64,000 nt of DNA from an uncultured Bacteroidales bacterium (lineage in GTDB: Bacteria; Bacteroidota; Bacteroidia; Bacteroidales; UBA3663). Location: the NCBI GenBank assembly GCA_946631995.1, contig CAMPAQ010000017.1:16306-80305 (forward strand), written 5' to 3'. The notes under the pieces were generated by a model. That model was not told where the DNA came from. It searched no databases and saw nothing but the letters and a program-made list of their open reading frames with translations. Position numbers and translations under genes: made by a program. The stretch's first letter is position 1. Each line of letters opens with the position of its first letter. Below, piece by piece: positions 3,933 through 38,374 of this stretch.

Positions 3933-3940
3933 TATCTTTG
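3933..3940 (+). promoter_or_regulatory. Bacteroidetes sigma-A -7 box (TATCTTTG) upstream of structured element copy 1 / OmpA-family gene
   Basis: Exact match to the TAnnTTTG consensus, about 100 nt upstream of the element. Confidence 0.45.
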
Positions 3941-4018: not shown

Positions 4019-4195
4019 TATAGCATCCACTTGAATTTTGTCTCCTGAAAATTCGCCAAAATCTAACGGGACAACCTAAAAGTAAAAGCTCGGATGCTCA
4101 CGCTACGGCGTGGGCTTTTACTCGTATAGGTTGTTAGGTGTTTGGCGATACCTCAGGAGACAATGACGGATAAAATGCCCACGTTTTTGTATTTT
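4019..4195 (+). ncRNA. conserved structured RNA element, copy 1, in the 5' leader of the OmpA-family gene
   Basis: Nested stems: GTCTCCTGA (4040-4048) pairs with TCAGGAGAC (4153-4161); TTCGCCAAA pairs with TTTGGCGA; ACAACCTA pairs with TAGGTTGT; GTAAAAGC pairs with GCTTTTAC. The core GGATGCTCACGCT...GGCGTGGGC is identical in copy 2. Flanked by the conserved boxes ATAGCATCC (5') and CCACGTTTTT (3'). Confidence 0.5.
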
Positions 4196-4252: not shown

Positions 4253-5434
4253 ATGAAATTCAAAAACTTAATTCTGACAATGGCCGCGGTCATCACAAGC
4301 CTGAATGCAACGCTGGCCAATACGTCGAACAACGACAATGAAGAACTGCAAGCCTTCTCTTGGGCAGAACTGCAGGCAGGAGCGCAAATAACTCCGACAA
4401 ACGCAAGCAACGGCAAACTCTTCACTCCGGTATGCGCCATTTCCATCGGCCGATTCTTCTACCCTCAAATCGGAGGACGCATACACATCTCCGGACTAAA
4501 GGCCAAAGGCGGATTTGATCCTCTCGGCCAATATTACAAGTGGAACTTCCTGACATCGGACATTGACTTAATGGTCAACGTAACAGGCATCGTCAACGGC
4601 CGCAACGACAACATTCTGAACCTCATCGCCATCGCAGGCCTTGGCTTGACTGCATCATGGAACAACGACGAACTTCTCGAACTTGACAAGAATTACAAGA
4701 TACTTGGTAACAGCATGATGTGGAAAGACAACCACAAAGGGCGCAACCTTCGGCTCGGCATACGGCTCGAAACTGACCACACTCGGACATTCGGAGCTTC
4801 AGTAGAATTCACGGCCAACAACACCGACGACCGCTTCAACTCCAAATATGCGAATTCAAGCGACTGGATGCTGACCGGAATGTTGGGCGTGAGCTACCGC
4901 TTCGGCCGCAAATTCCGCAAGACAAACGGCGAAGCCACGGCCGACGGCACCGACCTCATCGAACGCATAGAACAAACGACACCCGAAGAACCGACCGCAT
5001 CAGTCGTCGAAGAAACGCCTTCGGCCGAAAAAGAGGTCGAAAAACAGCCAACGACGCGCACCATCGAACGGAGAATCAAAGTCACCTTGCACGAAGAGCA
5101 TTTCTATGCATACCGCGAGGTGGACAACGCAAGCGACGATGCTCAGATGCGCCGCATTGCCGACTTCCTGACCAAACACCCGGAAGCAACAATTTCTGTG
5201 ACTGGCTACGCCGACAAAGAGACAGGTACGGCTGCGGCCAATGCCCGATTCGCACGACAACGTGCCGAAATCTTCAAACGAAAACTGGTTGACGGATTCA
5301 ATGCAGACGGAAACCGCATCACAGTCGTTTCAAAGGGTGACACCGTCCAGCCATTTCCACAAAACGATCGCAACCGATGCGTAATCGTCGAAGGCAAGGC
5401 AGAGGAAACAATCATCGAAACCATCACAGAATAA
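4253..5434 (+). CDS. OmpA-family outer membrane protein (N-terminal beta-barrel region plus C-terminal OmpA-like peptidoglycan-binding domain)
   Basis: ORF 4142..5434 trimmed to MKFKNLILTMAAVITSLNATLA signal peptide. C-terminal ISVTGYADKETGTAAANARFARQRAEIFKRKLVDGF matches the OmpA_C-like domain. Confidence 0.75.
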   Translation: MKFKNLILTMAAVITSLNATLANTSNNDNEELQAFSWAELQAGAQITPTNASNGKLFTPVCAISIGRFFYPQIGGRIHISGLKAKGGFDPLGQYYKWNFLTSDIDLMVNVTGIVNGRNDNILNLIAIAGLGLTASWNNDELLELDKNYKILGNSMMWKDNHKGRNLRLGIRLETDHTRTFGASVEFTANNTDDRFNSKYANSSDWMLTGMLGVSYRFGRKFRKTNGEATADGTDLIERIEQTTPEEPTASVVEETPSAEKEVEKQPTTRTIERRIKVTLHEEHFYAYREVDNASDDAQMRRIADFLTKHPEATISVTGYADKETGTAAANARFARQRAEIFKRKLVDGFNADGNRITVVSKGDTVQPFPQNDRNRCVIVEGKAEETIIETITE

Positions 5435-6408: not shown

Positions 6409-7260
6409 ATGAAAAGAGAGTTCCGTCTCGCGGCATTGGCCGCAATGATTGCCATCACCGGCTGCACAACGGGCCAGAAGGAAGAGCCATTGGCCAACGA
6501 CCCGAACACAATCACATTGGCCGACAACCGAACAACCGTCACGTGGATCAAGGACAACCAGGGCGACAAACTCATGCCCCGCGAGCTCTTTCCCGAGGCT
6601 TCGGATTCGCTCGTGCAGGCGTTGGGTGTGGCCGATGGTGTGCCTGCCTCGATGAGTGCCTACCTGATGCATTGTGATGGCCAATGGGTACTGTTCGACA
6701 CAGGACTGGGGGCCGACAAGGGCGGACAGCTGCTGAACGCACTGCAGGCAGTAGGGCTGACGCCGGACAGCATCGGCTATATCTACCTCACGCACTTCCA
6801 CGGCGACCACATCGGCGGAATGATGCAGGACGGCCAAGCGCTCTTCACTCGCGCCGAGGTCTTTGCCTGCTGCCACGAATATATGGCATGGATGATGGAA
6901 ATGCCTCTGGAGAAGACGGAGCTGCAACGGAAAGTGATGGAGGCCTACCGCGACCGCACGCACCTGTTCGAGTGGGGCGACTCGCTTCCCAACGGGATAT
7001 TGGCCATAGATGCCCCCGGACATACGCCCGGCCACACGGTCTTCCGCAAGGAGAACCTGCTCATCGTGGGGGACCTGATGCACGGCTTTGACCTGCAGCT
7101 CAACCACCGCTATATCAGCTGCAACTATGACATGGACAAGGAGCAGGCCGCCCAGTCACGCAACCACATCATCAGCATCGCCCACAACGAGCATCTGACC
7201 ATCTGCGGTATGCACCTGCCGGCACCAGCATTCTTCGAAGTCAACCCGGAGACGAAATAG
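6409..7260 (+). CDS. MBL-fold metallo-hydrolase (lipoprotein)
   Basis: Signal peptide plus Cys (AMIAITGC), THFHGDHIGG zinc-binding motif, downstream DAPGHTPGH. Confidence 0.75.
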   Translation: MKREFRLAALAAMIAITGCTTGQKEEPLANDPNTITLADNRTTVTWIKDNQGDKLMPRELFPEASDSLVQALGVADGVPASMSAYLMHCDGQWVLFDTGLGADKGGQLLNALQAVGLTPDSIGYIYLTHFHGDHIGGMMQDGQALFTRAEVFACCHEYMAWMMEMPLEKTELQRKVMEAYRDRTHLFEWGDSLPNGILAIDAPGHTPGHTVFRKENLLIVGDLMHGFDLQLNHRYISCNYDMDKEQAAQSRNHIISIAHNEHLTICGMHLPAPAFFEVNPETK

Positions 7261-7858: not shown

Positions 7859-8324
7859 AGTTCGTATTGACAAGTGGCTGTGGGCCGTGCGCATCTTCAA
7901 GACGCGCTCGATTGCGGCCGATGCCATCAAGATGGGCCGTGTCACGATAGGCGGACAGAAAGTCAAGGCGTCGCGCAACGTGAAGATTGGCGAAGTCATC
8001 GACGTGAAGAAGCCGCCCATCACCTATTCCTTTAAAGTATTGGCATTGGCCGAAAACAGAATGGGTGCCAAGATGGTGCCCGGATTTATGGAAAATGTGA
8101 CCCGTCAGGAACAGCTCGACCTGCTACAGATGAGCCGTATCTCGGGTTTCATCGACCGTGCAAAAGGTTTGGGTCGCCCGACGAAGAAGGACCGCCGCGA
8201 CATGGACGACTTCACCACGCCGGAATATGTCGATGAATTCGACTTCTCGCTTGAAGATCTGGATGACCCGGATGTATGGGCCGAGGTGACGGAGGGACTC
8301 TCCAACAAAGATTCGGAACTTTAA
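7848..8324 (+). CDS. hslR: ribosome-associated heat-shock protein Hsp15 (S4 RNA-binding domain)
   Basis: [36 protein letters not shown]4 domain; overlaps pth by 11 nt. Confidence 0.8.
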
Positions 8325-8462
8325 ACAAAAAAAGAGGGTCGTCTCACGACGACCATCTTCACTAACCTTAAATCTTATACCATGAAAAACACGATGCAAA
8401 GGTAAAACCTTTAGTACATTAATGCAAGTGTTTATCGAAAAAAATTCATAATTTCGGTCAAA

Positions 8463-27744: not shown

Positions 27745-27777
27745 TTTGACCGACTATTCCGAAAAAAGCATACATTT
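27745..27777 (+). promoter_or_regulatory. Bacteroidetes sigma-A promoter (-33 TTTG, 21-nt spacer, -7 TACATTTG) upstream of structured element copy 2
   Basis: TTTG at 27745-27748, TACATTTG at 27770-27777; about 110 nt upstream of the element. Confidence 0.5.
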
Positions 27778-27867
27778 GCAGCCGCAAGATTTTCTGCACA
27801 ACCAATTAAAACCATAAACAAAAAAACAGACAAGAAAAGAAAGATATACTTCATACATATAGATGAC

Positions 27868-28045
27868 ATAGCATCCGCTTAAAACTTGCTTTCAGAAAAT
27901 TCGCCAAAATTTAAAAAGCAACTAAGAGTAAACAGTCTGGATGCTCACGCTGTTAGGCGTGGGCTTTTACTCGTATATAGTTGCATGGTGTTTGGCGATA
28001 CCTCTGAAAGCGTAGACGAATAAATTGTCCACGTTCTTTTTTTGT
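27868..28045 (+). ncRNA. conserved structured RNA element, copy 2, in the 5' leader of the secreted-protein gene at 28153
   Basis: Same architecture as copy 1. The outer stem is GCTTTCAGA (27888-27896) pairing with TCTGAAAGC (27993-28001). It differs from copy 1 at 4 positions and every change is compensated on the partner arm. The third stem also covaries (GCAACTA with TAGTTGC). Confidence 0.5.
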
Positions 28046-28152
28046 GCCTTTTTGACGACAATAACGACCTGTATCTTCTCATTACGACGCTGCCTCATCC
28101 GCAAGGACTGTGCAAGTCACACATATTATTAACTACTTAAAACCAAGAATTT

Positions 28153-29511
28153 ATGAAAAGACCATTGATTCTATTCACAGCATTGGCCATCACCGCGACG
28201 AGGCTCTTGGCCGATGTCCCGGCCGACTCCATCTGGCGCGAGATGCTCATCGGCTATGCAAGCCACAACACCCTGCTGTCGCAGAAATCGTGCGCAGAAG
28301 ACTTGACAGAGGCTATCAAGGGACTCCCGGAAATGTTCGGGCAGAAGGGAAAAAGCCCCTCACAGATTGCCTTCATCGGCCGACAACTTTCTAACCGCTA
28401 CTTCAGCGAAGTCTTCCCCAGCGACTACGCCCGCATCTATCTGGCCTCGGCGAAAGACAGCATCACGGAAAGCGAAGCGCGCGAGCTGTTGGACTATGTT
28501 GCGGCCAATGACTCATCCCTGAAAGTGCTGTTGCTGTGGACGGCTACCATGAACGAAGAGCAGACGGCCATCCGTATGGGCTATGTCAGGTTGCCGGCAT
28601 ACGTCAAACTGCAGCGCATCTGGAGACGTGACGACAAGTTCGACGCGCGAATTTTGACATATCAGCAAGGCTGGGCAATATATCACGGAGCGCGCCATGC
28701 GGCCGATGACTATGACCTGCTGCTGTGTGAAGTGCTCAAACTGCACGGCGGCGATATGACCAACAGCCAGAACATGAAACCAGTGCTCACACAATTTGGA
28801 GAACAACTAATAACGCAGACAGGCCAAGAGGTGTTCCCCGTCAACAATGCCAAAGAAAAGGCGAAGCAATGGGCCGACGAATACTGCGACAGCCTCTTCA
28901 TGAAAGACCTGGTACAAATGTTTTCTCCGCTCATGAGAGAAAACTTGAGCAAGGACGACCTTACAGCCGCAAGACAGGCATTGAACCGGCCACAAGTGCA
29001 ATTGGCCAACCAACACGTGAACGAGGCCGTACAAAAGGAATCGTTCCTGTCCGGAACCGCATCGCTCATCGTGGGTTCGCTTGGCAGTATGCTTGGGAGC
29101 ACTCCAGAGAACATCAAGGCCGTGAAGTGCCCCGAATCGTACAAAAAACTCTTCGACCAATATATGCAAACGAATGCTGGCAAACTGAACGAACTTCAAG
29201 GCTCTGTCGAGGCAGCCTTGCAAGAAAAAGGCATCGGCAATAATCCTGTAGCTCGTCAAATGATGAACGGCATGATTCAGTACATACAGAAAAACCTTCC
29301 TACGCTCATGCTGAACGCATATTACGGCACGGTGACCGAAGAAGACATGACCGCACTTATTGAGGTCGAGCAGGAACCAGCCGTGAAACGTCTGAGTGAG
29401 GCATCGGCCAAAACCATCAAGCCCATAGTTGCCAATGCCCAGGAACTTGGTAAGAAAATCTGCTACATCTACGCGGGCTACCTGATGTACTACAAAGCGG
29501 GAGAAAAGTAA
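28153..29511 (+). CDS. secreted hypothetical protein
   Basis: Signal peptide MKRPLILFTALAITATRLLADVPA; 452 aa, mostly helical composition. Preceded by copy 2 of the structured leader element. Confidence 0.6.
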   Translation: MKRPLILFTALAITATRLLADVPADSIWREMLIGYASHNTLLSQKSCAEDLTEAIKGLPEMFGQKGKSPSQIAFIGRQLSNRYFSEVFPSDYARIYLASAKDSITESEARELLDYVAANDSSLKVLLLWTATMNEEQTAIRMGYVRLPAYVKLQRIWRRDDKFDARILTYQQGWAIYHGARHAADDYDLLLCEVLKLHGGDMTNSQNMKPVLTQFGEQLITQTGQEVFPVNNAKEKAKQWADEYCDSLFMKDLVQMFSPLMRENLSKDDLTAARQALNRPQVQLANQHVNEAVQKESFLSGTASLIVGSLGSMLGSTPENIKAVKCPESYKKLFDQYMQTNAGKLNELQGSVEAALQEKGIGNNPVARQMMNGMIQYIQKNLPTLMLNAYYGTVTEEDMTALIEVEQEPAVKRLSEASAKTIKPIVANAQELGKKICYIYAGYLMYYKAGEK

Positions 29512-29552
29512 AACGGATTGGGCAAACCCAGACTCATTAATCGATTAGGGAC

Positions 29553-30311
29553 ATGAACACCAAACAACAGAAAATCAACCTATTGAAGTGGAAAAAGGCA
29601 TTGACCATCGCTTCCAGAGTCCTGCCAATCGTGGCACTGGCACTTATAATGTATTATCGTCTGTCAGGCGACAATGAAAAACTGCTGCCCGTAGTCATCA
29701 TTGCGCTGATACTTATACCCGTGTGGGGCATTTGCACTGTCATGCTGTACTTTGTGCAGAAAAAGACGCAAGTTGACATCATGCAGGTTCTGGAGCCGCG
29801 CGACGACCTGCGAGGTGTTGATATGACCAATCGCGTTGCGGAAGCCATCGGCCAAGACAAATGCAAGATCAAGAATTTTGTCATCGCCGACAATTCGGAA
29901 GATGCACAAAGGGTCATCAGATTGTATCGGGAAAACATGGAATCATTGGCAAGCAATGAACAAATCATGGCCGTAATCAATCGCAAAACGGCTCTGCAAT
30001 GGAATTGGGGCTGGTCGGGACTATGCTTCACCGACAAGCACCTGTATCTGCACCTGTTGAAGAACAATGCCTTTGTCGGCCTAACCTTCAGTTCCCACGA
30101 ATTGAAACTGCCGCTGAACGCTATCAAGAGCATTTATATCGGAGATTCAGTCGAATACAAAGGCTATCTGGGGAGCGAAGTCCACATCAACGGTATTGAG
30201 GTCGGCCTGTTGCGCATGGGCTACGGTTTCGGCAATTCCGAAGATGAACACCTCAAGCAATTGCTCAATGAGCTGTTCAAGGAGATTTTCCGAAAGCAAG
30301 AAACAACTTAA
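29553..30311 (+). CDS. hypothetical membrane protein (two N-terminal TM helices plus bacterial PH-like soluble domain)
   Basis: TM segments VLPIVALALIMYY and LLPVVIIALILIPVWGICTVMLYF; C-terminal soluble domain. Confidence 0.55.
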   Translation: MNTKQQKINLLKWKKALTIASRVLPIVALALIMYYRLSGDNEKLLPVVIIALILIPVWGICTVMLYFVQKKTQVDIMQVLEPRDDLRGVDMTNRVAEAIGQDKCKIKNFVIADNSEDAQRVIRLYRENMESLASNEQIMAVINRKTALQWNWGWSGLCFTDKHLYLHLLKNNAFVGLTFSSHELKLPLNAIKSIYIGDSVEYKGYLGSEVHINGIEVGLLRMGYGFGNSEDEHLKQLLNELFKEIFRKQETT

Positions 30312-30347
30312 TAATATATTTATCAACCATTAAAAACAAAAAAAATT

Positions 30348-30824
30348 ATGGGACTCATTACAAACTATTTCCGAAACTACGTGAATTTTTCAGGTCGCAC
30401 GTCACGCAGCGACTATTGGCTCACGTCATTCTACCTGTTCCTGATTGCGTTGCCCATCTGCATATTCTTCGGTGTGGGCTGTTATTTGGGAATGAAGGCA
30501 ATCGAAAATGCATCTTCGACCGAGGACTATACCGCATTTTTCGCCCATCCGATTACCGTTGCCGGCATATTAATCATGACGCTATTCGTGCTGGCTACCT
30601 TCCTTCCGACCATGTCGATGATGGTGCGCCGTCTGCGCGATGCAGGACAATCGCCTTGGTGGGCTGCGGTCTCCTATGGCATTACGTTGCTGAAAGGATT
30701 CCTACCTTTCGGCAAGCCCATCAACTTCATCGTAACGGTCTACATCCTGATTCTTCTGTGCAAGCCAAGCGTAAAAGACTTTGATTCCAACCACACAACC
30801 GATTCAGAAACCACTACAAAATAA
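30348..30824 (+). CDS. DUF805 (YhaH-like) inner membrane protein
   Basis: FSGRTSRSDYWLTSFYLFLI is the DUF805 signature; multi-TM, 158 aa. Confidence 0.75.
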   Translation: MGLITNYFRNYVNFSGRTSRSDYWLTSFYLFLIALPICIFFGVGCYLGMKAIENASSTEDYTAFFAHPITVAGILIMTLFVLATFLPTMSMMVRRLRDAGQSPWWAAVSYGITLLKGFLPFGKPINFIVTVYILILLCKPSVKDFDSNHTTDSETTTK

Positions 30825-30836
30825 TTACACACAACT

Positions 30837-33836
30837 ATGAAAAAGATTTCTTTGATTTTGCTTGCAGTCCTCTCACTGACGGCGTGCAAGAGGGATTCGT
30901 CCGTAGTCTATCTGAACGGCGACGACGACGACATCATCATCCGTGTAGATGACGGCATGAAGGTCAACCTGACGGTCAACTGGAGCGATCTCGCCACCGC
31001 TCCGGACGGCATGACGGTCTATCTCTACCCGACGGGCAACGACACCGTGGACAGCACCGTCCGCTCGTGGCACTTCGACAACGTGCAGTCGGCTTCGGTC
31101 ACGGTACCCGAACAGGACTATTCCGTCATCTGTTTCAACCAGTCGGAGAACGAGCTTGCCGGCTACGTGTTCGATTTCCGCGACTACGCGACCGCAACGG
31201 TGACGGCCAAGGACCTGTCGAACCTTGCGCCATTGGCCATAGCCTCGATGAGCTCGCTGCAATCGACCCGAGCCCTGAACCTGATGGGCGTGCTCAAGCC
31301 GGTGAATGTGGTCAAGACGATGTCGCTCAAGATCCACGTAGCGGGCTTCAACGAGCGCGTCGAAGTGAAGGGTACGCTGTCCAACATGCCCGCCGGCGTG
31401 ACCATGTGCGACCGCAAGCCGCTGCCCAAGCCCGTTGACCTGACACTGCCGACGAAGGACTGGACGGTCAAGGCGACATCCGACGACGAGATCGACCTGG
31501 ACATCACGTTCAATTCCTTCGGCATATTCATGGACGATGAGACCCGCGCGGCAGGCAGCGGTGACGACGACTTTGTGGCCGAAACCAGAGTCGCGCTCGA
31601 CGACAGCGACCTGCGCAACATCCTGCACCTCGAAATCACAGCCGAGGACGGCACCGTCACGAAGCTCGACTACGATGTCACCCAGGAGCTCATCCGTCAA
31701 TATCGCATAGCGATCGAGAGCGAGGCGACAAGCTCCAACTCCACACCGCAGTTTGACAACCAGTTTTTCTTCTCGTACCATGCGGCCGACACCACAGCGA
31801 CCCTGGTCAGCGGCGTGGCCATGGGCAAGGTGGAGATTCCGGAGTACGTCCAGCATGACGGCCTGTCGTACAAGGTGACGGAAATCGGGGCACAGGCTTT
31901 TCGTGGCTGCACATATATGACATCCGTTTCCATCCCCGAAAGCGTGACCCGAATACGAAGTTATGCATTTGCGGAATGCGCCGGCCTATCGTCCCTCTCA
32001 TTGCCACAGTCGCTTAGGTTCATCGGAGTAAGAGCCTTTGACCAATGCCGAACTCTGACCGAAGTCACAATTCCGGAGCAGGTGGACAGTTTAGGAGGCT
32101 ATGCATTCGGTAATTGCCAGATGCTTACGAAAGTCAATTACAACGCGCGGCATTGCAATTATGATTATGATGAAAGTGCATTCACACATATTAGTGAGGG
32201 TGACACAGGTCTGGGCGTCACGACATTGAACATCGGAAATCAGGTTGAACATATCCCTGCTTGGGTATTCTCGGAGCTCAGTAACCTGAAGACCATGACA
32301 ATCCCGAATTCAGTGACAAGCATCGGCAGTAGTGCGTTCTCTCGTTGCACTGGCCTGACAAGCGTCACGATTCCGAGCAGCGTGACCAGCATCGGCAGCA
32401 GTGCGTTCTCTCGTTGCACTGGGCTGACAAGCATCACGATTCCGAGCAGCGTGACGAGCATCGGCGACGGTGCGTTCTATGATGTCGCGAATGTTGTTTA
32501 CAACGGCTCAGCAGAGGGCGCGCCGTGGGGAGCATTCATCATAAACGGTATCGTTGAAGATGGTATTGTCTTTGACGCTGAAAAAACGCAACTTATAAAG
32601 TATTGCGGAAATGGTGGTGATGTCACTATCCCTGCGACGGTTACAAGCATCGGCGAAAGTGCGTTCTCTCGTTGCACTGGCCTGACAAGCGTCACGATTC
32701 CGAGCAGCGTGACAAGCATCGGCGACGATGCGTTCGATGGCTGCACTGGCCTGACAAGCGTCACGATTCCAAGCAGCGTGACGAGCATCGGCGACTATGC
32801 GTTCTCGGGCTGCACTGGCCTGACGAGCGTCACGATTCCGAGCAGCGTGACGAGCATCGGCGACTATGCGTTCCAGTATTGCTCTGGCCTGACAAGCGTC
32901 ACGATTCCGAGCAGCGTGACGAGCATCGGCAGAAGTGCGTTCAATGACTGCACTGGACTGACAAGCGTCACGATTCCGAGCAGCGTGACAAGCATCGACA
33001 ACTATGCGTTCTATGGCTGCACTGGCCTGACGAGCGTCACGATTCCGAGCAGCGTGACGAGCATCGGCTACAATGCGTTCTATGATGTCGCGAATGTTGT
33101 TTACAACGGCTCAGCAGATGGCGCGCCGTGGGGAGCAAACAAAATCATATCTGGAGTCGTTGATGGTGATTTTATCCTTGCTGACGAAGAAAAGACCAAA
33201 CTTACAAAGTACATCGGCAAAGGTGGAAATGTCACTATCCCTGCGACGGTGACAAGCATCGGCGACAATGCGTTCCGAGGCTGCACTGGGCTGACAAGCG
33301 TCACGATTCCGAGCAGCGTGACAAGCATCGGCAGAAGTGCGTTCAATGACTGCACTGGACTGACAAGCGTCACGATTCCGAGCAGCGTGACAAGCATCGG
33401 CGACTTTGCGTTCGACGGCTGCACTGGCTTAACAAGCGTCACGATTCCGGACGGCGTGACCAGCATCGGCAACTTTGCGTTCTCAGGCTGCACTGGCCTG
33501 ACAAGCGTCACGATTCCGGACGGCGTGACAAGCATCGGCAAATGTGCGTTCTATGGCTGCACTGGCCTGACAAGCGTCACGATTCCGGACGGCGTGACAA
33601 GCATCGGCGACGGTGCATTCTATGGCTGCACTGGCCTGACAAGCGTCACGATTCCGAGCAGCGTGACAAGCATCGGCTACCGGGCGTTCTATGGCTGCAC
33701 TGGCCTGACAAGCGTCACGATTCCGAGCAGCGTGACCAGCATCGACGACGATGCATTCTATGGGATTGACATCATTTACTACAATGGAAGTGCATCCGGT
33801 GAACCGTGGGGAGCAAACAAAATAGTTAGGCAGTAA
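30837..33836 (+). CDS. BspA-type leucine-rich-repeat (LRR_5) cell-surface lipoprotein
   Basis: Lipoprotein signal MKKISLILLAVLSLTAC. About 300-aa N-terminal domain, then more than 25 units of CTGLTSVTIPSSVTSIG(D/S/R)xAF (23 aa = 69 bp). The C-terminal cap YYNGSASGEPWGANKIVRQ has two internal near-copies. Confidence 0.85.
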   Translation: MKKISLILLAVLSLTACKRDSSVVYLNGDDDDIIIRVDDGMKVNLTVNWSDLATAPDGMTVYLYPTGNDTVDSTVRSWHFDNVQSASVTVPEQDYSVICFNQSENELAGYVFDFRDYATATVTAKDLSNLAPLAIASMSSLQSTRALNLMGVLKPVNVVKTMSLKIHVAGFNERVEVKGTLSNMPAGVTMCDRKPLPKPVDLTLPTKDWTVKATSDDEIDLDITFNSFGIFMDDETRAAGSGDDDFVAETRVALDDSDLRNILHLEITAEDGTVTKLDYDVTQELIRQYRIAIESEATSSNSTPQFDNQFFFSYHAADTTATLVSGVAMGKVEIPEYVQHDGLSYKVTEIGAQAFRGCTYMTSVSIPESVTRIRSYAFAECAGLSSLSLPQSLRFIGVRAFDQCRTLTEVTIPEQVDSLGGYAFGNCQMLTKVNYNARHCNYDYDESAFTHISEGDTGLGVTTLNIGNQVEHIPAWVFSELSNLKTMTIPNSVTSIGSSAFSRCTGLTSVTIPSSVTSIGSSAFSRCTGLTSITIPSSVTSIGDGAFYDVANVVYNGSAEGAPWGAFIINGIVEDGIVFDAEKTQLIKYCGNGGDVTIPATVTSIGESAFSRCTGLTSVTIPSSVTSIGDDAFDGCTGLTSVTIPSSVTSIGDYAFSGCTGLTSVTIPSSVTSIGDYAFQYCSGLTSVTIPSSVTSIGRSAFNDCTGLTSVTIPSSVTSIDNYAFYGCTGLTSVTIPSSVTSIGYNAFYDVANVVYNGSADGAPWGANKIISGVVDGDFILADEEKTKLTKYIGKGGNVTIPATVTSIGDNAFRGCTGLTSVTIPSSVTSIGRSAFNDCTGLTSVTIPSSVTSIGDFAFDGCTGLTSVTIPDGVTSIGNFAFSGCTGLTSVTIPDGVTSIGKCAFYGCTGLTSVTIPDGVTSIGDGAFYGCTGLTSVTIPSSVTSIGYRAFYGCTGLTSVTIPSSVTSIDDDAFYGIDIIYYNGSASGEPWGANKIVRQ
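32300..33770 (+). repeat. near-identical 69-bp tandem repeats (LRR_5 units) with higher-order ~600-bp duplication, inside the BspA-like CDS
   Basis: CTGACAAGCGTCACGATTCCGAGCAGCGTGAC(A/G)AGCATCGGC recurs at least 15 times at 69-bp spacing. TTCTATGATGTCGCGAATGTTGTTTACAACGGCTCAGCAGA(G/T)GGCGCGCCGTGGGGAGCA occurs at ~32476 and ~33078. Confidence 0.9.
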
Positions 33837-33920
33837 AAAAAACTATCGGCCAAAGGAGAAATGACCTTTATGTAAATCCGTTAAGAGTTGGGGGCAAATT
33901 CCCTTTGGCCATTATTGTTG
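33819..33920 (+). repeat. ~100-bp direct repeat, copy A (overlaps the last 4 codons of the BspA-like gene)
   Basis: ATAGTTAGGCAGTAAAAAAAACTATCGGCCAAAGGAG...CCGTTAAGAGTTGGGGGCAAATTCCCTTTGGCCATTA. It contains two hairpins (ATAGTT with AACTAT; GGCCAAAGG with CCTTTGGCC). Confidence 0.8.
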
Positions 33921-33939: not shown

Positions 33940-34539
33940 ATGGAAGAAATGAAGATTTACCGCAAGCGCGGGATGGCAGTGTTCTCAATCATCTTTTTTT
34001 TGGTCGCAGCCTGTGCCTTGGGCTATTGCATAACCCTCCTCTCCCCGATGATCAGCTCCGAAGATGATCTCTTGATATCGGCCATACTGACGTTCAACGA
34101 GGTGTTGATATGCCTGATTATTGTGTTTATGCTATTGTATGCAATATCCCTATGCATGAAGGTGTTTTCAGACAAGCCCTATATCGTCGTGGGGAAAGAT
34201 TCCGTGACGGAATTCCCTTCATTTGGCGATGAGCAGGTCTTTGCATACCAGGACATTGAGTCCGTCCGGCACAGATTCGTAAAATACAGATATAGAGGCA
34301 GAGCTGGTGCCTATGGAGTCTGGATGATACACATCGTCGAGAAGGAAAATGCCGAAGCAAGACGTGTCCGCGAAGCCTCCGGGCTGACACACTGGCGTCT
34401 GCGTTACCAAAAATTCATGTACGGAGAGCACTTCTTCCTCGAAAGTGAGAACATGACCATGAAGGGAGCCGACATTGCCAAGACAATCAACGAGCGTATT
34501 GCCGCCCACAACGAGCGGCATCGGCCAACAATCGAATAA
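33940..34539 (+). CDS. hypothetical membrane protein (2 TM plus PH-like soluble domain)
   Basis: 199 aa; TM helices AVFSIIFFLVAACALGYCITLL and LICLIIVFMLLYAISL. Flanked by ~100-bp direct repeats. Confidence 0.55.
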   Translation: MEEMKIYRKRGMAVFSIIFFLVAACALGYCITLLSPMISSEDDLLISAILTFNEVLICLIIVFMLLYAISLCMKVFSDKPYIVVGKDSVTEFPSFGDEQVFAYQDIESVRHRFVKYRYRGRAGAYGVWMIHIVEKENAEARRVREASGLTHWRLRYQKFMYGEHFFLESENMTMKGADIAKTINERIAAHNERHRPTIE

Positions 34540-34545
34540 AAAAAT

Positions 34546-34648
34546 CTTTATAGTTAGGCAGTAAAAAAAACTATCGGCCAAGGGGAAAATGCCCTTTTTG
34601 GAAATCCGTTAAGAGTTGGAGGCAAATCCCCTTTGGCCATTACTATTC
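34546..34648 (+). repeat. ~100-bp direct repeat, copy B (downstream of gene 33940..34539, upstream of the TonB_C gene)
   Basis: Roughly 85% identical to copy A and includes the ATAGTTAGGCAGTAA string that forms the stop region of the BspA-like gene. The stem arms change in a compensatory way (GGCCAAGGGG with CCCCTTTGGCC). Confidence 0.8.
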
Positions 34649-36871: not shown

Positions 36872-38374
36872 ATGGAAACATTTCTTATTCCAGTCATTCT
36901 GATTGTGGTGGCCATGATTCTGGCATCCGCCCTCCTGAAGCGGTACCGCCGCTGCCCATCGGACAAAATCCTCGTCGTCTATGGCTCGACCGGCAAAGGC
37001 TCGGCCAAATGCGTACACGGCGGCGGCGTCTTCGTATGGCCTGTCATCCAGGACTATGCCTACCTCAACCTGACCCCCATCAGCATCGAGGCCAACCTGA
37101 CCAACGCCCTGTCGCGCCAGAATATCCGCGTCGATGTGCCATGCCGGTTCACCGTCGGCATCTCGACCGAGAGCGATTCGATGAACAATGCCGCCGAACG
37201 CCTGCTCGGACTGTCGGCCAACGACATCCAGGACATGGCGCGAGACATCCTCTTCGGCCAGCTGCGTCTGGTCATTGCCTCAATGTCGATCGAGGAGCTG
37301 AACCAGGACCGCGACGTCTTCCAGGAGAACATCAAGAAGAACGTCGAAATCGAATTGAAGAAAATCGGCCTCAAGCTCATCAACGTCAACATCACCGACA
37401 TCAAGGACGAATCGGGCTACATCGAGGCCCTCGGACAGGAGGCTGCGGCCAAGGCCATCAACGACGCCAAAGTCAAGGTAGCCGAAAAGGAGAACGACGC
37501 CAAAGTCAAGGTGGCCGAGCAGGAAATGGCCGGCGAATCGGGCAAGGCGAAGTTCCAGATGGAGACCCGTAAGGCTGTTGCTGCGGCCAATGCAGAAGCC
37601 GTGAAGGGCGAAAACAACGCCAAGGTCGAAATTGCCAACTCCGAGGCCGACCTGCGCGAACGTGAAGCCGAGGCCCAGCGCCGCGCCACCGCAGCCGAGA
37701 AGATTGCCGCCGCAAAGGCTCTCGAAGAGTCATATTCTGCCGAGCAGAAAGCCGAGCTGGCGCGTGCCGAGCGCGAACGTTCGACGCAACAGGCCAACAT
37801 CATCGTCAAACAGGAAATCGAGAAACAGCGTATCGTCGTCGAGGCCGAAGCCGAGGCCGAACAGAAGCGCGTCACCGCCAAGGGTGAAGCCGACTACGTG
37901 GCTTTCCGAGCCAAAGGTGAAGCCGAAGCCGTCCGCATCAAGGCCGAAGGTGAAGGTGCCGCCGCTGCCGCAAAAGCCAAGGGTGAAGCCGAGGCCATCT
38001 ACGCCAAGATGGAGGCCGAAGCACGCGGCTTGAACGAGGTGCTCACCAAGCAGGCTGCCGGCTACGACAAGATGATTCAGGCTGCCGGAGGCGATGCCAC
38101 AAAGGCATACACGCTGCTCCTGCTCGAGAAGTTGCCGGAACTCGTCAAGACGCAGGTCGAAGCCATCAAGGGCATCAACATCGACAAGGTCACTGTCTGG
38201 GATGGCGGTCAAGGAGCCGACGGCAAGGGCTCGACCGCAAGTTTCGTGTCGAACCTCTACAAGGCCGTTCCACCACTTCAGGATCTGTTCGACCAAGTCG
38301 GCATGAAGTTGCCTGAATACTTGGGTAAGGAAAAGGCATCGGCCAATGCTCCAGAAGCCGAAACTGAAAAGTAA
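36872..38374 (+). CDS. flotillin / SPFH (band-7) family protein (YqiK-like)
   Basis: N-terminal TM, SPFH domain, long Ala/Glu-rich coiled-coil (EAEAEAEQKRVTAKGEAD). Confidence 0.85.
   Translation: METFLIPVILIVVAMILASALLKRYRRCPSDKILVVYGSTGKGSAKCVHGGGVFVWPVIQDYAYLNLTPISIEANLTNALSRQNIRVDVPCRFTVGISTESDSMNNAAERLLGLSANDIQDMARDILFGQLRLVIASMSIEELNQDRDVFQENIKKNVEIELKKIGLKLINVNITDIKDESGYIEALGQEAAAKAINDAKVKVAEKENDAKVKVAEQEMAGESGKAKFQMETRKAVAAANAEAVKGENNAKVEIANSEADLREREAEAQRRATAAEKIAAAKALEESYSAEQKAELARAERERSTQQANIIVKQEIEKQRIVVEAEAEAEQKRVTAKGEADYVAFRAKGEAEAVRIKAEGEGAAAAAKAKGEAEAIYAKMEAEARGLNEVLTKQAAGYDKMIQAAGGDATKAYTLLLLEKLPELVKTQVEAIKGINIDKVTVWDGGQGADGKGSTASFVSNLYKAVPPLQDLFDQVGMKLPEYLGKEKASANAPEAETEK

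Follow-up and report, generated by a model that had tools for sequence, protein, structure and literature searches.

A new family of structured leader RNAs, best described as attenuator-type, upstream of exported-protein genes in Bacteroidales

The 64,000-nt stretch of DNA analysed here, hereafter the window, derives from a metagenome scaffold of an uncultured Bacteroidales bacterium of the GTDB lineage UBA3663 (assembly GCA_946631995.1, contig CAMPAQ010000017.1, positions 16,306 to 80,305 of the forward strand), and carries on its plus strand two copies of a structured leader element, copy A at 4023-4195 and copy B at 27871-28043, which are homologous over ~200 nt. Copy A is followed by an open reading frame (ORF) for a 393-aa OmpA-family protein (4253-5434, +; PF00691, E 1.9e-9), the nearest named relatives of which are from Prevotella, and copy B by a 452-aa ORF (28153-29511, +) with no Pfam match; both proteins possess signal-peptide-like N-termini, in agreement with a first-pass annotation of this DNA that had taken both regulated genes to encode exported proteins. 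The copy B ORF heads four close plus-strand ORFs (28153-33836, with gaps of 41, 36 and 12 nt), the fourth of which (30837-33836) encodes a 999-aa BspA-type leucine-rich repeat (LRR)/DUF5119 protein with 69-nt periodic repeats at 32177-33826; hence the copy B leader may control a surface-protein operon and not its first gene alone.

The two loci share one layout, namely a -7 box TAnnTTTG, an A-rich leader of ~85-95 nt, a structured element of ~170 nt, a CCACG box, a T-run and the start codon. By reading the sequence, the -7 box of copy A (TATCTTTG) was located at 3933-3940 (+), as claimed beforehand, while that of copy B (TACATTTG), also subjected to the family position test described below, was present at 27771-27778 (+), one base off the position first assigned to it; a -33 TTTG stands where it had been reported, at 27745-27748 (+), 22 nt upstream of the copy B box, which gives a Bacteroidetes-type promoter. 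Both -7 boxes are embedded in a longer common context, AAAAnGCATAnnTTTGCAnCCG. In the window TAnnTTTG matched 40 times versus 23.8 expected, and no further plus-strand match was found between either -7 box and its start codon. A sigma-70 promoter scan was discarded as uninformative for Bacteroidetes. The distance from the end of the -7 box to the first conserved helix strand, GCATCC, is 92 nt in copy B (27871) and 82 nt in copy A (4023), close to the ~100 nt estimated earlier, and that from the 3′-end of helix P1 (28012 in B, 4162 in A) to the ATG (28153 and 4253) is 140 and 90 nt, within the predicted 90-150 nt; the end of the T-run is 57-109 nt away from the start codon at the two loci. Given a transcription start ~7 nt past the -7 box, the 5′ untranslated regions (UTRs) would be ~368 nt in copy B and ~306 nt in copy A, matching the 300-370 nt proposed. 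Leaders of this length are indeed unusual, because the 5′ UTRs of Segatella copri average 69-76 nt, and only ~35 leaderless transcripts per strain were found in this species (bioRxiv 10.1101/2024.04.05.588293), so that the earlier statement that Bacteroidetes mRNAs are often leaderless was overstated. The layout of a promoter plus a long structured leader was thus confirmed at both loci.

This shared layout is not a local coincidence. Two DNA-pattern scans, one using an exact pattern on one genome per species (scan 1, at least 118 stretches) and the other using anchors from another part of the element on metagenomes (scan 2, at least 120 stretches), retrieved at least 238 stretches besides the window copies. 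The scan 1 matches listed belong to Prevotellaceae, Bacteroidaceae, Muribaculaceae, Paludibacteraceae, Porphyromonadaceae, Alistipes, Coprobacter and Salinivirgaceae, with at least two copies in several of the assemblies among them, and the scan 2 matches came mostly from rumen and human gut metagenomes. Pooling yielded 208 unique full-length members, which were aligned afresh and underlie the family counts below except where another sample is given. When queried with the family nhmmer profile, the 64-kb window returned copy B (E 1.5e-50) and copy A (E 9e-41) and no third copy, the extra match being a reverse-strand self-match of a hairpin. As candidates for an invariant core, TACTCGTATA and GGTGTTTGGCG were rejected, since both were required by the scan 1 pattern and both vary in the independently anchored scan 2.

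The family matched no described RNA in the collections searched. Among the 4227 covariance models of Rfam 15, with a score at or above the gathering threshold of the family taken as a match, only FopS was found in the whole window and no family at either leader, and permissive scans of both copies and three typical members gave chance-level scores only (RsmY, 15 bits versus 57 needed; snoRNAs). The element was not described in the literature searched in full text, core sequences included as queries, nor in Weinberg 2010 and 2017 or the S. copri preprint and its supplements, nor in 200 of the 408 supplement files of Fremin & Bhatt 2021. GenBank phages and PLSDB plasmids contained no family match, and the viral contigs of IMG/VR contained one true copy (L247:10908-11133, UViG_3300045988_173203; E 4e-54), on which grounds a mobile or phage origin was rejected; the viral-contig copy may itself belong to the flank of a prophage or to a piece of host DNA that was misbinned. 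Tandem leader-gene units were also observed, in which two same-strand leaders lie 2.5-3.5 kb apart, i.e. in L026 (1857-2094 and 5391-5622), L082 (5309-5080 and 2794-2573) and L106 (2743-2517 and 6212-6014). Two further copies (L066:1448-1692 and L108:6949-7193) end after GGCGAUAAC and continue into unrelated sequence with a hairpin AAGCCCACUUUGUUAUGAAAGUGGGU, looking like disrupted or recombined leaders.

The promoter and the downstream gene recur with the element across the family. An exact TAnnTTTG was present in the expected zone of 129 of 205 members versus 6 of 174 in a control zone of the same size, with a modal position 130-150 nt upstream of the P5 arm, the window copies (161 and 172 nt) lying at the long end of the distribution, and in 65 of these 129 promoters a TTTG precedes the -7 box by 15-30 nt. 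A same-strand ORF follows in 182 of 197 members, most commonly starting 120-140 nt past P4, which places the element between the predicted promoter and the start codon on the gene strand. Signal-peptide-like N-termini were predicted for 82% of the 182 downstream ORFs versus 26% of the other ORFs at the same loci, extending to the whole family the envelope link that the first-pass annotation had suggested from two genes. A Pfam census of 92 downstream proteins recovered BspA-type LRR (14), dockerin-like (6), outer membrane protein (OMP) beta-barrel (5), BACON (3) and OmpA (1) proteins, while the small lipoproteins in the census mostly had no Pfam match. As for OmpA-family orthologs, the leader was found with those most closely related to the copy A protein, i.e. 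L119 (identical protein) and L120 (76% identity), and not with five homologs of at most 46% identity (L121-L125), which have short UTRs; an OmpA-specific leader was thus rejected, considering also that OmpA accounts for only one of the 92 proteins. By eye, many members (e.g. L006, L013, L028 and L029) carry GCCTATG just after the -7 box with an in-frame stop within 1-4 codons (ATG TAG, ATG TAA or ATG ACA TAA), a feature that the window copies do not have.

Both copies fold more stably than their shuffled sequences (z -3.8 for B and -6.7 for A), each as one long stack of five helices. In copy B, the nested stack was placed at 27887-28012 (+) from this fold, alignment folding and pooled covariation, and is composed of P1 (27887-27896/28003-28012), P2 (27901-27908/27991-27998), P3 (27918-27923/27979-27984), P4 (27926-27932/27966-27972) and the P5 hairpin (27943-27964); in copy A, the corresponding element occupies 4023-4162 (+), with P1 at 4039-4048/4153-4162, P2 at 4053-4060/4141-4148, P3 at 4071-4076/4129-4134, P4 at 4080-4088/4115-4122 and P5 at 4096-4115. 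The two copies differ from each other in a compensatory manner in P1 and P3, and RNAalifold on 113 members recovered the same stack with compensatory changes in 14 of 29 pairs. When all members are counted as independent, canonical pairs made up 93.4% of P1, 96.0% of P2, 89.2% of P3, 96.6% of P4 and 98.8% of P5, every helix exceeding its slid-partner control (11-68%), and double-sided changes were seen in 9/9, 5/8, 5/5, 1/9 and 2/9 of the respective pairs. P2 provides the cleanest test, because the scan 2 sample was not selected on it: the 3′ strand UUUGGCGA was accompanied by the matching 5′ strand UCGCCAAA in 51 sequences, UUUGCCGA by UCGGCAAA in 10 of 10, UUUGCAGA by UCUGCAAA in 2 of 2, and (A/U)UCCCCAA by UUGGGGAA in 12 of 14. 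Covariation thus backs a conserved structured domain. Moreover, 95.5% of the pairs were canonical when read on the gene strand versus 86.9% on the reverse strand, 9.9% being G-U, and such strand-specific pairing indicates that the structure belongs to the plus-strand RNA. In a simple scan, the GC-rich P5 hairpin together with UUUUAC (27943-27972) appeared terminator-like, extended by the A-tract/U-tract pairing of P4, and could be a pause site.

Beyond the stack, the CCACG box starts 16 nt past P1 in both copies and runs into the T-run, as CCACGTTCTTTTTTT at 28029-28043 (+) in copy B and, with an interrupted T-run, as CCACGTTTTTGTATTTT at 4179-4195 (+) in copy A; of the CCACGTTTTT that had been called invariant, CCACGTT is common to both copies and the remainder differs. 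A terminator-like hairpin, AGCGU.GACGA-AUAAA-UUGUC.ACGUU (28009-28035, +; -8.6 kcal/mol), is predicted in copy B and followed by CUUUUUUU, and its 5′ arm at 28009-28012 is at the same time the end of the P1 3′ strand. Most members conform to the consensus (A)AACGU.GAC-loop-GUC.ACGUU(U), with a mean of -7.9 kcal/mol versus -4.6 kcal/mol for shuffles, and in the unbiased consensus the conservation of GUCC.CG reaches at least 97%. Of the 9 nt that follow the box, 7 or more are U in 102 of 110 members. The family hairpin is 83% canonical, or ~91% when one conserved A.C position is left out, with double-sided changes in 7 of 11 pairs, and in L104, L174 and L232 both of its arms have changed together. 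Its 5′ arm comprises the last four P1 3′ bases plus a CG that is also in P1, so that ~6 nt are common to both helices, and the P1 5′ base, the last P1 3′ base and the base after CCACG vary in concert (U/A/U in 46, C/G/U in 27 and C/G/C in 26), an A at the P1 3′ end coinciding with a C after the box only once. Shared nucleotides with three-way covariation imply that P1 and the hairpin exclude each other, i.e. that P1 is a predicted antiterminator opposing a terminator-like hairpin. The earlier proposal that the T-run box acts as a conditional attenuator thereby gains computational support from the covarying hairpin, the U-rich tail and the overlap with P1.

Past the T-run, conserved blocks (GUCU and GGACU) exist in ~70% of members, and for a pairing of AGUCC with GGACU 4 of 14 variants were compensated versus 2.3% by chance. 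Two other candidate pairings were dropped, namely AGACA (5′) with UGUCU past the T-run (2 of 27 variants compensated versus 5.4% by chance) and the hairpin 5′ arm GUAGAC with a downstream GUCUAC, whose G-to-A variants looked uncompensated by eye. The box GUCCACG (28027-28033) also resembles the P5 5′ arm GCUCACG, both being complementary to the invariant P5 3′ arm CGUGGGC; GUCCACG could therefore pair with the P5 3′ arm, and the A.C mismatch found in 201 of 208 members involves the partner of the box in the terminator-like hairpin.

A further competitor of the stack can be formed from the 5′ half of the leader alone, as a hairpin of three helices termed a/g, b/f and c/e′. Strand a, located upstream of P1, reads GCGUUAGC in the family, GCAUCCGC in copy B (27871-27878, +) and GCAUCC in copy A (4023-4028, +), and pairs with strand g in the P4/P5 loop, GGAUGC at 27939-27944 (+) in copy B, the last two bases of which are also the base of P5, and 4092-4097 (+) in copy A. 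The a/g helix is 95.9% canonical, and its adjacent pairs switch together from U-A to C-G (80 and 56 sequences) and from A-U to C-G (123 and 54 sequences); b/f, formed by UUCUUG and CAAGAG, has weaker support than a/g. Through c/e′, the P1 5′ strand is joined to the segment just before P3, and in copy B, folding of the nascent transcript predicts this inner part at 27886-27921 (+), with the 5′ strand of P1, UUGCUUU at 27886-27892, matched to AAAGCAA at 27915-27921. Across the family, c and e′ strands pair at -5.5 kcal/mol with their own partners versus -3.6 kcal/mol in cross combinations (z = -13), as do P1 strands at -11.9 versus -3.6 kcal/mol. Because b/f overlaps P1 by two bases and P4 by four, the 5′ hairpin and the stack compete for common bases. 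ViennaRNA returned the 5′ hairpin for nascent transcripts that stop short of the 3′ half, and the P1-P5 stack for those that include it. The a/g helix may form as a pseudoknot atop P1-P5, or in the alternative 5′ hairpin only. Taken at the level of sequence, the overlap of P1 with the U-tailed hairpin is the layout of a terminator/antiterminator switch, to which the 5′ hairpin adds a third state.

Our preferred description of the element is a new family of leader RNAs of the attenuator type that precede exported-protein genes in Bacteroidales, and we assign a probability of about 55% to its being an attenuator or RNA-switch module with two exclusive folds. Such a module would unite a Bacteroidetes promoter with a structured 5′ leader of ~250-370 nt that is cotranscribed with the downstream gene, and copies of it stand before many unrelated exported or surface-protein genes in Bacteroidales. 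The 5′ half would fold first by itself, the a/g, b/f and c/e′ hairpin sequestering the P1 5′ strand, and with the 3′ half made, the P1-P5 stack could form in its place. Formation of P1 would block the U-tailed hairpin and let polymerase read through into the gene, whereas persistence of the 5′ hairpin and absence of P1 would leave hairpin and T-run to serve as an intrinsic terminator. The balance would be set by some signal, be it a small molecule, a protein or folding kinetics, by which a set of surface-protein genes would be controlled jointly. Comparison of the members shows the family itself, its helices and their mutual exclusion, the strand, the position of the promoter and the link to genes; the site of transcription start, termination at the T-run and the regulated choice are what we infer from it. 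More tentatively, and with a probability clearly below one half, the leaders could constitute a new RNA-switch class, which would either sense a small molecule or a second messenger as a riboswitch does or be bound by a regulatory protein dedicated to it. As a three-state attenuator, this class would jointly switch on or off numerous genes for surface, adhesin-like and secreted proteins, in a set of variable composition, in Prevotella, Bacteroides and further Bacteroidales of gut and rumen.

Several observations weigh against an attenuator. The terminator-like hairpin is weak (~-8 kcal/mol), contains the conserved A.C mismatch in 201 of 208 members and an uncompensated A.C at the neighbouring pair in 35, and is degenerate in copy A (-3.6 to -5.8 kcal/mol). 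With -11 to -16 kcal/mol, P1 exceeds this hairpin in stability and is kept in the equilibrium fold of the full leader, so termination would require either a factor or a 5′ hairpin that is kinetically trapped. Some 30% of members, both window copies among them, are without the conserved blocks past the T-run; the covariation counts ignore kinship among members; and the downstream genes share export and not a pathway, and so suggest no ligand. The most invariant nucleotides lie in the paired P4/P5 and not in loops, which is no less compatible with recognition by a protein or with alternative pairing than with a pocket for a small molecule.

Some of these points would be accommodated by a constitutive leader, in which P1-P5 always forms and, in the manner of the Escherichia coli ompA 5′ UTR, stabilises the mRNA or fixes high expression of abundant surface proteins, the T-run being no regulated terminator. 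P1-P5 being the equilibrium fold, P1 outweighing a weak hairpin, the hairpin tolerating mismatches and being poor in copy A, and the lack of a common pathway downstream all speak for it; yet it leaves unexplained why three-way covariation should preserve a rival hairpin, why a U-rich tail is nearly universal and why a 5′ hairpin that withholds the P1 5′ strand covaries, and a mere stabiliser would not require ~250 nt of conserved sequence. We regard it as unlikely. The U-rich tail would find its place if transcription mostly stopped at the T-run to release an independent small RNA (sRNA) of ~215-260 nt acting in trans, alone or besides a cis effect, with the gene expressed through incidental readthrough, and Bacteroides does have paralogous sRNA families, such as the FopS present in the window; its own promoter, the U-tailed hairpin, the presence of several copies in a genome and a very strongly conserved sequence would likewise suit an sRNA. 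However, the same-strand ORF stands at a tightly fixed distance in 182 of 197 copies, the genes would have no separate promoter, as the window shows no TAnnTTTG from the element to the ATG, the conserved and covarying AGUCC...GGACU past the T-run implies a function of the readthrough transcript, and the terminator is weak compared with that of FopS, all of which render an sRNA rather improbable.

Alternatively, the leader could be controlled post-transcriptionally by a protein or RNase that binds the P4/P5 stem and CGUAGACGAAG...GUCCACG and acts on translation, processing or decay, the U-run offering a single-stranded platform. The near-invariance of the paired P4/P5 and the mimicry of the P5 5′ arm by the box agree with such binding, and control through the leader is plausible in Bacteroidetes, where initiation is not Shine-Dalgarno-based (bioRxiv 10.1101/2024.04.05.588293), but the structured part ends ~60-110 nt short of the ATG, conserved pairing with the region of the start codon did not turn up, and the sharing of nucleotides between P1 and a U-tailed hairpin is the signature of termination control; we see only a slim chance for it. 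That the element is a DNA-level repeat, i.e. a miniature inverted-repeat transposable element (MITE) or recombination site, and not an RNA, is scarcely credible: its multiple copies, sometimes in tandem 2.5-3.5 kb apart, and its internal inverted repeats would be expected of a repeat, but the G-U pairs make the structure strand-specific, as the canonical fractions on the two strands show, orientation and distance to promoter and ORF are fixed, helix sequences vary with pairing kept, terminal repeats and target duplications are lacking, and the phage and plasmid collections held no match, with one true copy in the IMG/VR viral contigs.

The predicted attenuator has several parallels among known leaders. 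Like purine and thiamine pyrophosphate (TPP) riboswitches and PyrR-type leaders with an anti-antiterminator, it resides in the 5′ UTR on the gene strand, possesses a covarying multi-helix domain closed by P1, whose 3′ strand shares nucleotides with the 5′ arm of a hairpin with a U-tail and which an upstream alternative hairpin can block, and occurs in several copies per genome; unlike them, the Bacteroidales leader matches no Rfam 15 family, serves genes that share export and not a metabolic pathway, and has a weak terminator-like hairpin with a conserved mismatch, its regulation being putative. With T-box leaders it shares a length of ~200-250 nt, many paralogous copies forming a putative regulon and a predicted terminator/antiterminator choice, whereas its downstream genes are not those of aminoacyl-tRNA synthetases or amino acids, and no T-box match was returned by cmscan; T-boxes are not known from Bacteroidetes. 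The cyclic di-GMP (c-di-GMP)-I and -II riboswitches, of which a genome often has many copies, similarly act from 5′ UTRs on heterogeneous sets of genes for surface, adhesion and secreted proteins, but differ in architecture, gave no cmscan match, and nothing in the leader points to a cyclic dinucleotide. The stabilising 5′ UTR of E. coli ompA also presents a structure before an OmpA-family or outer-membrane gene, yet it is ~130 nt long with two simple stem-loops, belongs to one gene, shows no competition with a terminator and is not homologous, and the Bacteroidales leader is absent from most of the OmpA homologs compared. The Rfam families FopS, Bacteroidales-1, Bacteroides-1 and Bacteroid-trp come from the same taxa with a Bacteroidetes-type promoter and paralogous copies, though none matched the leader even at E ≤ 10.

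Bacteroidales dominate the human gut and the rumen, and it is their surface proteins that determine how they adhere, capture nutrients, succumb to phages and are recognised by the immune system. The known control of surface genes mostly relies on promoter inversion, at the DNA level, or else involves hybrid two-component systems and sigma/anti-sigma factors. An RNA leader common to dozens of unrelated exported-protein genes would, if borne out, add a new regulatory layer, make a ‘surfaceome’ regulon readable straight from sequence, and provide a concrete RNA for tests of ligands and protein partners. The leader is also a practical annotation marker that Rfam-based pipelines miss, leaving intergenic regions of 300-400 nt blank.

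Some other features of the window deserve mention. The only Rfam match is a FopS-family sRNA (RF04319) at 8324-8392 (-; 70.1 bits, E 3e-8), which has a strong GC-rich terminator. Just past the BspA-type LRR gene, a 98-nt direct repeat of 90% identity (33822-33919 and 34550-34647) flanks an ORF at 33940-34539, each repeat holding the inverted repeat GGCCAAAGG...CCTTTGGCC. Periodic repeats of 33 nt (at least 5 units) occur at 37843-38021 within the ORF 36872-38374, and a Lactamase_B-fold ORF at ~6409-7260 (+) showed a weak match to the anti-Pycsar protein Apyc1 in the Pfam list of the identical contig L119.

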